Assembly (NCBI GenBank): GCA_039807095.1
Contig: JBDHQM010000007.1
Coordinates: forward strand, 9,388 to 73,387
Direction of reading: 5' to 3'
Source: Kiritimatiellia bacterium
GTDB lineage: Bacteria > Verrucomicrobiota > Kiritimatiellia > CAIVKH01
Length of the DNA: 64,000 bases
The notes beneath the pieces were generated by a model, which saw only the letters and a list, made by a program, of their open reading frames with translations, was not told where the DNA came from and made no database searches. The position numbers were made by a program, and so were the translations under genes. Shown here in pieces: positions 56,622 to 59,990 of the stretch (its first letter is position 1; each line of letters begins with the position of its first letter).

Positions 56622-59600
56622 ATGCGCAATCCACGTATAATTCTAATCTTTATCGGCGCGTTCCTGTTTGCGCCCTTGCTCGCAGCGCGAGCGGCTCCCA
56701 GAACCAATGGCGCTGTTCAGGTGTGGAGTGTGCGGACGAACGACGCCGGACACCGGAGTCTGTTCGTGAATTTGGCGACCAACGGGATCGCAGAAGTAAT
56801 TCCGTATGCGCCGGATGTTGTGCGCGTTCGATTCTATTTTTTGGGAACCACCAACTTCTTTGAGCGCGAAGAGGTTTCGATTGCGAAGCCGCTGGCGCAG
56901 TGGCCGTCGTTTGCAGCGACATTCTCGGCGGCGAGTCCAACGAACTTTTTGATTCAAACTGATCAGTTGAATGTCGAAGTGGTGTTCAGTAATCGCTTCC
57001 AGGTTCACTTCAAGGACTCGCTGGGCCGCGATTTATTGCGTGACCGTCAATTGGAATGGGACAGCGCATATTTCATGGCCAACGACACAAGCGCTTTTGC
57101 ACAGATCAGTTGGCCTGAAGGCTCCGCTGGCGTTTCGAACCGGCCATCAGGCTTCAAGGTGCGATCTGTCAAAGAAATGCCGGGTAATGCCGCCTTTTTC
57201 GGGCTGGGCGATGAGGCGGGAGCGCTGAACCGGCGAGGTCGTGTCTTCCAGTTTTGGACACAGGACACATTTGCCTTTAGCGAATTGCGGAACCCGAAAT
57301 ATACGGCGCTTCCGTTTTGGTATGGCGTGCTGCCGGCTACGACAAATCGCGGGGCCTATTCGTATGGCATTTTCTTCAATAATCCGGCGCGCCCCGTTGT
57401 GGATTTGTCGCTCACAAACGGGACGTACTCATTCGAAGCGGGGGACGATCAGATTGACTACTTCTTTTTTGCGGGCGGGTCAGACAACACGATGCCCGCT
57501 GTCATTGACCGGTTTTCGGAACTGACGGGTCGCCCGATGTTTCTCCCCAAGTGGGGATACGGCTATCACCAGTCGCGGCATAGTTATCTGACCGCGGCGG
57601 AAGTCACGAATGTGATTACGACGTTTCGCGCGTTGGACATTCCCGTTGATGCGGTCTATCTGGATATCGGACATCAGAACAACGGCGGGCAACCGCACCA
57701 GTTAACGTTCAACTCTGCCTACTCGAATCCGCCTGCACTCGTGGGTTATGCGGCAAGTAATGGCGTGCAACTCGTCCCGATTGTTGAGCCGTTGCTGACG
57801 ACAAATGATCCGCTGTATGCGGTGGCTGCATCCAATCTCTACTTCATAAAAGACAATGGGTTGGCGAACTATCTCGGAAGTAATTATCTTGGCTTTGTTT
57901 CCTGGCTCGACTGGTCCATTCAAGGCACGCGTGATTGGTGGACGGGTCTCTTGACGAACTATCTTGCCAGCAACGGTTTTCATGGCATCTGGAACGATCT
58001 GACGGAGCCGAATGAAAATGAGATGCCGTTGAATACCCTTTGGTATCTGGATGGTCGCTATGGCGATTTCACCACAAATGACACGCGCAAATGGACGGCG
58101 GTGAATCGAAATACGTACAGCCTTCTCCAGGCACAGGTGACCTACGGGGCCTTGAAAAAACAGAATCCGGCATTGCGCCCGTTTGCGCTCAGTCGAAGCG
58201 CGTGGCCCGGCATTCAGGCGTATGCCCTCGGGTGGAGTGGCGACAATGCGTCCACGTATGACCACATGCGTTACGATCAGCGCGTGGTCTTGAGCACGAT
58301 GATTTCTGGCCAAGCACAATCCGGCAGCGATATTGGCGGATTTGTTGGGAATGTGAACAGCAGCCTCTTGACCCGCTGGCTGGAAGCGGGGGTCCTTGCG
58401 CCTTTTTATCGAAATCATTCGAATTTTAATACTGCAGATCAGGAGCCCTGGGTGTTCGGAAACAGCGCGACGCTGTTCAATCGGCATTGGATTCAGTTCC
58501 GCTATCGCATGATGCCGTTCCTTTATAGCCTCGCCTATGGCGCGTCTACGAACGGGCTGCCCATGAATGTGCCGACTGCATTTTTCTTTATGTCGGACAC
58601 GAATACCTGGAGGTTGAACGACACTGAATTCCTGGTGGGATCGCACCTGCTTGCAGCGCCGGTTCTCGACGAGAATGTGAATACGCGCAGTCTCTATCTG
58701 CCTGCAGGCGCAACGTGGTTTCACTGGGATACGGACCAGATATATTCAGGCGGGCAGACCGTTGTTGTGCCAGCTTCTCTCTCGCAATTGCCGCTGTTTG
58801 CGCGCTCCGGCGCGATCATTCCGATGGGGCCTGCGATGAAGTTTGTGTATGAGTACGTGCCCGGCTGGCTGGATATTCATGTGTGGCCCGGCGCAACGAA
58901 TCGCTTTGTGATGTTTGAGGATGACGGCAGAACTACAAACTATCTGGCCGGCATTTTTGCGCGCACTCCGTTTTCTCTTTCCGGCAGCGCGGATGCGCTG
59001 AATTTTACCGTTCATGCGCGAACCGGGAGCTTCGATCCCGGCTCGCGCGATCTCTACATCGTCGCGCACGCGATGTCGAACGTGATTTCGGTGACCGCCA
59101 ATGGCGTTCCGCTCGCACGCCGTGCGAATCGGGCTGAATTGACGAACAGCGCGGGGGAGGGCTGGGCATACGACACCGCCACCCGGTTGACGACTGTGAA
59201 AATTGCGGATTCGGGGGCGGAGCGCGTGTTGGAGATGTCCGCAAATTCAGATGCTCCGGCGCCCGTATCCTTCCCCTCCGTCTACACAAGTATGGCTGTG
59301 GCGGGCACCTTCAATCTTTGGAATGAAGCCGCGCAGAATATGCGCCTGGTGAGTTCGTCGCAGTGGGCATGCGTGCTGGCGTTGGAGGCGACTCCGAAGC
59401 TGGAATTCAAATTTGTGGCGAACAACTCGTGGAGTGCAGCGAATTGGGGGCTCAGTACGCAGCCGCAGTTCAGCGTTCCGCTCGCGGGTGTTGGAGTTTC
59501 CAATGCGCCCAACATCGTGATCTCCAATCTTTCGGCAGGTGTCTACACGCTTCACTTTAACGACTCGACGCGCGCGTTCCGGATTGACCACGCTTCCGCG

Positions 59601-59990
59601 ATGGATAGCGATGGAGACGGAATGGATGATGCGTGGGAGCTGTATTATGGATTGAACCCGCTCCTCGCGAGCGACGCGCTTTTGGATTTGGATGGCGACG
59701 GAGTTGTGAATCGAAGTGAATACGTAGCGGGGACCCGGCCGGTTGACGTATTGGACTACTTCGCGATTACTGCACATGCGGCAAGTCCTACAAATGGCGT
59801 GTTGGTGAGTTGGAGCGCCGTTTCCGGACGCTATTACCAGGTATTCTATGCGACGAACCTGGTGAGTGTGCCTGCATTCTTTGCATTGCCGTCGTTCAGC
59901 AATTTGACCGGCAACGGGCCGGTGACTATTGCCGACACAAACGGCGCCCCGCATCGAGCCTATCGGGTCGGTGTTTCGATTGCGCCGTGA
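56622..59990 (+). CDS. Secreted GH31-family alpha-glycosidase with a C-terminal carbohydrate-binding-like domain, a TSP3-like Asp-loop pair and the 'YRV' beta domain.
   Basis: Signal peptide 'MRNPRIILIFIGAFLFAPLLAARA'. GH31 motifs 'GIWNDLTEPNE', 'GWSGDNASTYDHMRY' and 'FYRNHSNF'. The C-terminus reads 'DSDGDGMDDAWELYYGLNP...DLDGDGVVNRSEYVAGTRP...GVLVSWSAVSGRYYQVFYATNL...RAYRVGVSIAP'. Confidence 0.8.
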   Translation: MRNPRIILIFIGAFLFAPLLAARAAPRTNGAVQVWSVRTNDAGHRSLFVNLATNGIAEVIPYAPDVVRVRFYFLGTTNFFEREEVSIAKPLAQWPSFAATFSAASPTNFLIQTDQLNVEVVFSNRFQVHFKDSLGRDLLRDRQLEWDSAYFMANDTSAFAQISWPEGSAGVSNRPSGFKVRSVKEMPGNAAFFGLGDEAGALNRRGRVFQFWTQDTFAFSELRNPKYTALPFWYGVLPATTNRGAYSYGIFFNNPARPVVDLSLTNGTYSFEAGDDQIDYFFFAGGSDNTMPAVIDRFSELTGRPMFLPKWGYGYHQSRHSYLTAAEVTNVITTFRALDIPVDAVYLDIGHQNNGGQPHQLTFNSAYSNPPALVGYAASNGVQLVPIVEPLLTTNDPLYAVAASNLYFIKDNGLANYLGSNYLGFVSWLDWSIQGTRDWWTGLLTNYLASNGFHGIWNDLTEPNENEMPLNTLWYLDGRYGDFTTNDTRKWTAVNRNTYSLLQAQVTYGALKKQNPALRPFALSRSAWPGIQAYALGWSGDNASTYDHMRYDQRVVLSTMISGQAQSGSDIGGFVGNVNSSLLTRWLEAGVLAPFYRNHSNFNTADQEPWVFGNSATLFNRHWIQFRYRMMPFLYSLAYGASTNGLPMNVPTAFFFMSDTNTWRLNDTEFLVGSHLLAAPVLDENVNTRSLYLPAGATWFHWDTDQIYSGGQTVVVPASLSQLPLFARSGAIIPMGPAMKFVYEYVPGWLDIHVWPGATNRFVMFEDDGRTTNYLAGIFARTPFSLSGSADALNFTVHARTGSFDPGSRDLYIVAHAMSNVISVTANGVPLARRANRAELTNSAGEGWAYDTATRLTTVKIADSGAERVLEMSANSDAPAPVSFPSVYTSMAVAGTFNLWNEAAQNMRLVSSSQWACVLALEATPKLEFKFVANNSWSAANWGLSTQPQFSVPLAGVGVSNAPNIVISNLSAGVYTLHFNDSTRAFRIDHASAMDSDGDGMDDAWELYYGLNPLLASDALLDLDGDGVVNRSEYVAGTRPVDVLDYFAITAHAASPTNGVLVSWSAVSGRYYQVFYATNLVSVPAFFALPSFSNLTGNGPVTIADTNGAPHRAYRVGVSIAP

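Follow-up and report, generated by a model that had tools for sequence, protein, structure and literature searches.

A C-terminal cassette of calcium-binding loops and a divergent FN3-like domain on exported proteins of a Kiritimatiellia bacterium: a possible surface-retention module

Known C-terminal modules of exported proteins

The Verrucomicrobiota and the Kiritimatiellota play a major part in degrading complex and sulfated polysaccharides, and to our knowledge the secretion and retention of exoenzymes and adhesins in these phyla are poorly understood. Here, we focus on a stretch of 64,000 nucleotides of chromosomal DNA from a Kiritimatiellia bacterium (GenBank assembly GCA_039807095.1, contig JBDHQM010000007.1, positions 9,388 to 73,387), hereafter the window, in which three exported proteins, namely, a glycoside hydrolase of family 31 (GH31) and two smaller proteins called A and B, end in a common cassette composed of a pair of Ca2+-binding loops followed by a small beta domain of the fibronectin type III (FN3) kind. 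Several described systems resemble this cassette in one respect or another, and we compare them with it in the following before turning to the locus itself.

The type A C-terminal domain (CTD) from the Bacteroidota type IX secretion system (T9SS) is likewise a small Ig/FN3-like sandwich found at the extreme C-terminus of diverse Sec-exported proteins, a C25 peptidase included; in gingipains and PorU, it sits at the C-terminal end of the C25 peptidase. However, the module of the window has no sequence relation to this CTD, occurs in a host of the Planctomycetes–Verrucomicrobia–Chlamydiae (PVC) group, is preceded by Ca2+ loops of the TSP3 type, and is often present in tandem. The signals of the PEP-CTERM/exosortase, LPXTG/sortase, MYXO-CTERM, and GlyGly-CTERM systems are comparable in that they are C-terminal, placed after choice-of-anchor type domains, and carried by many unrelated exported proteins. 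These are tripartite signals, whereas the module is a folded domain of about 75 residues without signature motif, hydrophobic transmembrane helix, or basic tail.

Dockerins, which act as docking tags, also consist of a C-terminal pair of Ca2+-binding D-x-D-x-D-G loops of about 22 residues with short helices, carried by glycoside hydrolases and other exoenzymes, but the loops considered here are of the TSP3_bac type, are followed by a beta sandwich, and give no Dockerin_1 match. With regard to the beta domain, the Fn3 of CtXyl5A (PDB entries 3MPC and 5G56) and the Pfam fn3 family (PF00041) share with it strands A/B to F, with a Trp in strand B, a Y-x-V in strand C, and YYRV in strand F. Unlike bacterial Fn3 modules, the domain of the window is not scored by Pfam fn3, lacks the G strand, is terminal and not an internal linker, and is coupled to TSP3 loops. 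Finally, the Amuc_1099 family of Akkermansia (Amuc_1098-1102) possesses a TSP3 pair of the same loop type as the module, and protein D of the window is one of its members; however, D has no FN3-like domain, is anchored in the membrane by its N-terminus, and is a component of a machine and not a cargo.

The cassette and its three carriers in the window

The original prediction, made from the letters of the window, announced a C-terminal module in four places on unrelated secreted proteins, one of them for the loops only. The module does recur, at the coordinates announced, in three unrelated carriers, which are the GH31 enzyme, the C25-associated protein A, and the small protein B, whereas the fourth supposed copy, in protein D, is limited to the Asp loops (35332..35484, on the forward strand, as are all features written with two dots below; regular expression, Pfam, and profile match). 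The N-termini of A, B, and GH31 read as Sec signal peptides. The beta domain, thought to span about 85 residues, measures 72 to 80 residues (about 75).

In the GH31 carrier, the open reading frame (ORF) opens at 56535, with a likely ATG start at 56622 followed by the signal peptide MRNPRIILIFIGAFLFAPLLAARA, and ends at 59990. The body of the enzyme (56622..59603) comprises a Gal_mutarotas_2 domain, a GH31 TIM barrel, a GH31 C-terminal domain, DUF5110, and a weak CBM-like stretch; membership in GH31 is given by Pfam matches to the TIM-barrel, N-terminal, and C-terminal domains (E 2.8e-80, 2.6e-19, and 1.2e-20, respectively), to which a match at E 8.2e-15 is added. The announced coordinates, 59580-59990, correspond to the 3' end of this gene. 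The last 128 residues hold loop 1 (DSDGDGMDDAWE...), loop 2 (DLDGDGVVNRSEYVAGTRPVD), the junction AGTRPVD, and then a beta-rich stretch of 80 residues. As located by regular expression and translation, the loop pair occupies 59604..59747, with DSDGDG from 59604 and DLDGDG from 59685, and the FN3-like domain occupies 59748..59987, where it ends in AYRVGVSIAP directly before the stop codon (59988-59990).

The gene of protein A (14812-15573) encodes in its first part (14812..15207, from the ORF listing) a signal peptide (MIRTLLGILVFAALSVRA) and a beta-rich domain, then the loop pair (15208..15351, loops DVNGNG... at 15208 and DVDGDGFSNRNEWLAGTHPNDP at 15286, by regular expression and translation), and lastly the FN3-like domain (15352..15570), with six predicted strands of which the last is LFRVELIY. 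The exact protein is present on a Logan assembly contig. Its N-terminal part had been labelled as a PPC domain, a tentative label that Pfam did not reproduce: neither A nor four orthologues (L004-L007) matched the model PF04151 at E<=1, although this part may still have a PPC fold. A PDB sequence search with this N-terminal domain returned nothing, and the AlphaFold2 (AF2) model of full-length A, built from three sequences, was unusable (predicted local distance difference test, pLDDT, 32.7). Protein B (26912-27580) is almost nothing but loops and terminal domain: a signal peptide, a stretch rich in Gly and Ser, and two TSP3 loops, 27143-27208 and 27269-27337 (together 26912..27337, from the ORF listing and regular expression), precede a divergent FN3-like domain with an insertion (27338..27577) ending in RVYGVQVLP.

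This recurrence goes beyond chance, since the beta domains alone are similar in pairwise BLASTP (E 4e-6, 4e-4 for B-A, and 5e-5 for B-GH31), and since the module is recovered by an external profile. The latter, mod2, has 101 positions, was built solely from database matches, and was run against the 835 six-frame pieces of the window, where it retrieves A, GH31, and B at E 1e-16, 2e-16 (1.6e-15 over positions 4-100 of 101 for GH31), and 1e-10, respectively. The match of B (E 1.3e-10) covers the first 63 of the 101 positions, and D is found through its loops alone (E 3e-6, first 27 positions). No copy beyond A, B, GH31, and the loops of D was detected in these 835 pieces.

Nature of the loops and of the beta domain

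The loops had been described as TSP3-like, and this identity holds: the Pfam model TSP3_bac (PF18884) matches all four proteins, with scores above the gathering cut-off of 25 bits for D (42) and B (32.8), and below it for A (23.9) and GH31 (18.0, E 0.0026). The two sub-threshold proteins each show two canonical D-x-D-x-D-G loops on inspection, and the GH31 loops are also matched by the TSP3 regions of the NCBIfam models MtsD and Amuc_1099.

The beta domains of the window proteins, by contrast with these loops, matched nothing in Pfam-A and NCBIfam, even at E<=1, and when Pfam models were run against 69 carriers, none of them, fn3 included, covered the terminal domain. Profile and fold place the domain in the FN3 superfamily. 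The AF2 model of the A module (pLDDT 77.6) is a six-strand sandwich in which the FRV motif forms the last strand, with a short helix after each Ca2+ loop. A Foldseek search of the PDB with this model gave no match at E<=1e-3, the top-ranked matches being FN3 domains. With the family profile, a match at E 2.9e-4 was obtained to PDB 3MPC, which is the Fn3-like module of CtXyl5A from Clostridium thermocellum. This profile also cross-matches Pfam-fn3 repeat proteins and is aligned by hhalign with a canonical fn3 unit at 74% probability (E 2.8e-5), with FYRV on strand F and fn3 running about 20 residues further, through strand G. The beta domain is thus, as judged from profile and fold, a divergent FN3-superfamily sandwich cut off after strand F ("FYRV") and devoid of the canonical G strand. 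The module ends 3-5 residues beyond the strand-F motif [FY]-Y/F-R-V, and the junction between loops and domain reads AGTxPxD.

The lack of strand G raises the possibility that the terminal FN3 is completed in trans, by donor-strand or beta-augmentation docking as in chaperone-usher pilins, which would lock the carriers to a scaffold or to each other. The stop of the fn3 alignment at strand F with the protein ending 3-5 residues later, the six strands of the AF2 model, and the fact that the small putative adaptors A and B adjoin proteins that they may serve are consistent with such a mechanism. However, the internal copies of tandem arrays show the same six-strand unit, also without G strand and followed only by Pro-rich linkers, and AF2 folds the domain alone with a pLDDT around 80. 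Because these internal copies have the same six strands before their linkers, the unit is probably a self-contained variant and not a broken fold, and we consider completion in trans very improbable.

Comparisons with other C-terminal signals were negative. No dockerin type I match (Pfam PF00404) was seen at E<=1 in the module proteins. With regard to PEP-CTERM and other tripartite signals, the C-termini (LFRVELIY, RVYGVQVLP, and AYRVGVSIAP) contain no hydrophobic helix and match no NCBIfam sorting domain. Similarly, neither Por_Secre_tail nor TIGR04183 matched, and hhalign against a genuine T9SS CTD gave a probability of 1%.

Distribution and terminal position of the family

A word-indexed search with the beta domain only yielded one significant match, this domain being too short with regard to the 5.8-billion-sequence database, and the same kind of search with the profile of the whole module, loops added, yielded 825 proteins. 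In the best 120 of these 825, the best-scoring copy ends 0-3 residues from the stop in 116 cases, the other four having a second copy at the end, and most of the sequences terminate in ...FYRVGVQ or a close variant. An exhaustive HMMER search was then performed with the 88-position domain profile against 1.84 billion cluster representatives, giving 18,418 clusters at E<=1e-3, a number that includes ordinary fn3 cross-matches, and 3,380 at E<=1e-10. The module therefore belongs to a very large family without Pfam or NCBIfam model, of which we found no description in a literature search of incomplete coverage.

Terminal position is the most regular feature of the best-scoring members. Among the best 146 of the HMMER list, 130 end at most 5 residues from the domain, among them 94 of the 99 single-copy proteins and 35 proteins with 2-7 tandem copies. 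Furthermore, 120 of the 130 C-terminal carriers end 3 or 4 residues after a YR[VIL]-type motif. An internal contrast is provided by about 10 giant proteins of the same 146, which are ordinary Pfam-fn3 arrays with a last repeat 71 to 2757 residues from the end. The idea of a generic FN3 domain occurring at random positions, put forward as what would refute the original prediction, is therefore right as to the superfamily and wrong as to the position, which is overwhelmingly the extreme C-terminus among the best scorers. A Ca2+ loop lies just upstream of the domain in 77 of the 130 carriers.

The database carriers are diverse and include GH31, beta-helix, PKD, Ig, RCC1, and CotH proteins as well as giant adhesins, and 56 of 90 full-length ones passed a crude signal-peptide test. 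The named family members are from Verrucomicrobiota/Verrucomicrobiae, apart from one assigned to Candidatus Acidoferrum. Several Verrucomicrobiota matches of the first search bear the name "choice-of-anchor Q domain-containing protein", and in these the choice_anch_Q model lies directly upstream of the loop and the domain; by NCBIfam convention, we take this family name to designate domains that precede alternative C-terminal anchors. Stand-alone small proteins also appeared among the matches, but many are truncated gene calls or decayed genes and were not retained as a class. In locus L009 (7945-10519), a 172-aa gene call hides a 522-aa ORF with signal peptide, and in L008 (8730-10459), which looks degraded, only frame-broken pieces lie upstream.

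These data bear on one rival explanation, an ordinary accessory module without addressing role, in which the FN3 would be an X-module, spacer, or weak glycan binder and TSP3 a Ca2+-stabilised linker, the terminal position arising through domain accretion at the 3' end of genes. Besides its FN3 membership, the domain has as its closest solved relative the Fn3 of CtXyl5A, a xylanase of the cellulosome, and this Fn3 is known to be accessory and non-catalytic. Arrays of tandem copies with Pro-rich linkers resemble stalks, and loops and beta domain occur separately. On the other hand, FN3 X-modules are usually internal, and here 130 of 146 proteins end within 5 residues of the domain, with 120 of these 130 ending 3 or 4 residues after the motif. 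Moreover, several carriers have no glycan-related function (C25 partner, Ig, RCC1, CotH), and protein B, an almost pure module, is more conserved than its S74 neighbour, as far as a by-eye comparison of B with its counterpart in L010 allows. We regard this explanation as a serious rival, though on the unlikely side.

A candidate function in surface retention

The sorting or anchoring tag proposed in the original prediction is plausible but hypothetical: it is partly supported by the terminal position, the Sec signal peptides, the diversity of the carriers, and the anchor-like place of the module, whereas a relation to the T9SS CTD or PEP-CTERM is not supported, and the tandem arrays are untypical of a cleaved signal. 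On comparative grounds, we favour the view that the module is a non-catalytic and probably uncleaved surface-retention or docking module, to which we assign a probability of roughly 45%. Three features point in this direction: the regularity with which terminal carriers stop 3-4 residues after YRV (120 of 130), the place of the module behind a choice-of-anchor domain and as the last part of a C25 peptidase, and its presence at the C-terminus of giant adhesins, which need one fixed end (for example in L007). Through its terminal beta sandwich, the exported protein would be held on a component of the cell envelope, and the Ca2+-loaded loops, together with extra tandem copies, would form a stiff spacer. 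The module could be deployed in cis, on the GH31 enzyme, or in trans, on protein A beside the PorU-like C25 peptidase and possibly on protein B beside the S74 fibre-like protein.

Several points weigh against retention as the common function. The terminal counts cover the best 146-150 scorers of a profile that was itself built from C-terminal copies, and the top list is dominated by one Verrucomicrobiota beta-helix paralogue family. In addition, loops and beta domain are separable, as shown by the upstream Ca2+ loop being found in 77 of the 130 carriers; the presence of the loops without FN3-like domain in the Amuc_1099-family protein D likewise makes the loop pair a separable element.

A stronger proposal is that PVC bacteria, in the main Verrucomicrobiota and Kiritimatiellota, have a surface-sorting or anchoring pathway of their own that is so far undescribed, and that the cassette is its address tag, a functional counterpart of the T9SS CTD or PEP-CTERM, with thousands of users, its own receptor or machinery, and a supply in trans by A- or B-like adaptors; we hold it to be doubtful. 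If the cassette were a true tag, its hidden Markov model (HMM) could predict the surface exoproteome, and the cassette could serve as a bait for the receptor or machinery and might be used as a display tag for engineering. It is built of known kinds of parts (TSP3 and FN3) and, as an address tag, would represent a new variant of the signals formed by a folded C-terminal domain. Even as a structural module, the domain deserves a family model, since none exists in Pfam or NCBIfam and part of the carriers are recorded solely as truncated gene calls. The striking family-level pattern offers a way to test how PVC bacteria target their proteins, with a function that is proposed here by comparison.

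The C25 peptidase and its gene cluster

Protein A is encoded directly after a PorU-like C25 cysteine peptidase (12587..14815; Pfam Peptidase_C25, E 1.3e-62), whose stop overlaps the start of A and in which the His (YVGHGY) and Cys (WTCANG) motifs are recognisable by eye. The peptidase, which shares 74% and 61% identity with its counterparts in two Kiritimatiellia metagenome-assembled genomes, matches the NCBIfam models PorU2 (NF052324, E 5.2e-53, 180.4 bits for a cut-off of 450) and PorU (NF033707, E 7.6e-51, 172.8 bits for a cut-off of 420). Model positions 5-729 of 1095 are aligned, and the peptidase lacks the C-terminal third of PorU.

The gene belongs to a cluster (41-16666) encoding, in order, a giant isopeptide-type adhesin, a Propeptide_C25-like protein, C25, an A-like protein, and an NTP_transf_5 nucleotidyltransferase. 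The small secreted Propeptide_C25-like protein (12007..12609; Pfam PF08126, E 6.4e-7), which is part of the context and not a carrier, is also present in L004, L005, and L006. The full cluster is kept in L002-L006, with C25 identity down to 35%, and in L007 (30% C25 identity), C25, NTP_transf_5, and the A-like protein are kept, with no Propeptide_C25 gene called and a non-adjacent giant protein. Across Kiritimatiellia, the C25-A pair is thus conserved in L002-L007 at 30-74% C25 identity, with A as a neighbour of C25 in seven genomes, and every A-like protein has the loops and the terminal domain. Furthermore, natural fusions of C25 and A exist (P0281, 950 aa; P0283, 988 aa), with the module at the end, after the beta-rich domain; owing to these fusions, A can be seen as a detachable C-terminal extension of C25.

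The C25 peptidase had been advanced, speculatively, as the enzyme processing the tag. In a scheme modelled on T9SS, an outer-membrane machinery would recognise the beta domain, and the C25 transpeptidase would cut it off and attach the cargo to a glycolipid of the surface. That diverse Sec-exported proteins have a folded beta sandwich as their extreme C-terminus agrees with this scheme, as do the almost end-to-end alignment of the window C25 with PorU and PorU2, the conservation of its His and Cys motifs, and its own association with the tag, a property of PorU as well. However, its scores lie far under the cut-offs of both models (173 for 420 and 180 for 450), and none of the proteins scanned from the 64-kb window matched a T9SS core component (PorK/L/M/N, Sov, PorV). 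Nor did a literature search of incomplete coverage find any paper linking Kiritimatiellota with T9SS. Tandem terminal arrays of 2-7 copies, frequent here, are also untypical of cleaved signals. As to distribution, the C25 family is small, with 141 clusters at E<=1e-10 and named members from Kiritimatiellae, Anaerolineae, Omnitrophica, and Pyrinomonadaceae, none from Verrucomicrobiota, whereas the tag family is thousands strong and mostly from Verrucomicrobiota. Lastly, the conserved cluster with the giant adhesin suggests a dedicated substrate. Taken together, the tandem arrays, the lack of any similarity to T9SS, and the missing co-distributed enzyme make a cleaved T9SS-style signal quite unlikely.

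The C25 peptidase is instead a partner or carrier of the module, separate from it in the window and fused to it in P0281 and P0283, and probably a client of the tag rather than its processor. A general sortase role for C25 was considered and rated unlikely, in view of the fusions, the cluster with its dedicated adhesin, and a phyletic distribution that does not match the one of the tag family; a putative role dedicated to the neighbouring adhesin is more plausible. The cluster as a whole looks like an adhesin with its dedicated peptidase or transpeptidase.

Regarding the adhesin itself, it carries SdrD_B, CLIPPER, and SpaA repeats and exceeds 3986 residues in the window, where it runs off the start. 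Its C-terminal part (11375-11700) is homologous to the N-terminal region of C25 (12674-12990; BLASTP E 4e-7, 28% identity over 109 residues), and an FN3-like stretch, VEWATASE..GYHIYRA, lies just upstream of this homology. Antisense ORFs of 950 and 1403 residues (2501-5353 and 7637-11848, reverse strand) inside the adhesin gene are probably by-products of repeats or base composition and not genes. Near the distant C25 homologue of L007, a giant CotH/LTD/cadherin-like protein (2-3823) ends in an FN3-like terminal domain (E 6.7e-5, 6 residues after the match).

Protein B and the S74 fibre-like protein

Protein B is encoded 20 nt downstream of a protein that is secreted, fibre-like, and equipped with a Peptidase_S74 domain of the intramolecular-chaperone kind, the two genes spanning 25453-27580. 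The S74-B pair recurs in L010 (20-2645), the sole informative locus of the metagenome scan with an S74 protein. Between the window and L010, the S74 protein is 67% identical and B nearly identical by eye, the L010 B protein keeping the FN3-like domain. Protein B may be an adaptor for the S74 fibre.

Protein D and the pilus-like cluster

Protein D (34951-36003), listed in the original prediction among the exoprotein carriers, does not belong with them. It matches the NCBIfam model Amuc_1099_fam (NF042425) at E 3.8e-24 with 85.8 bits for a cut-off of 50, and the TSP3 pair is a feature of this family's own model. By its sequence, D is a component of an Amuc_1099-type pilus system with an N-terminal membrane anchor. 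For the flanking genes, matches to the models of Amuc_1102, 1101, 1100, and 1098 have E values between 1e-12 and 1e-160 and scores under the respective equivalog cut-offs. The region 31499-39219 contains a complete Akkermansia-type pilus-like cluster, with Amuc_1102, the PilM-like Amuc_1101, Amuc_1100, Amuc_1099, and the secretin Amuc_1098.

Elsewhere in the window, an ORF of 678 residues (40296-42332) has no NCBIfam match at E<=1e-5, and a protein of 582 residues (44469-46217) gives a sub-threshold match to the "marine proteobacterial sortase target protein" model (TIGR03788; E 1e-28, 100 bits for a cut-off of 552).

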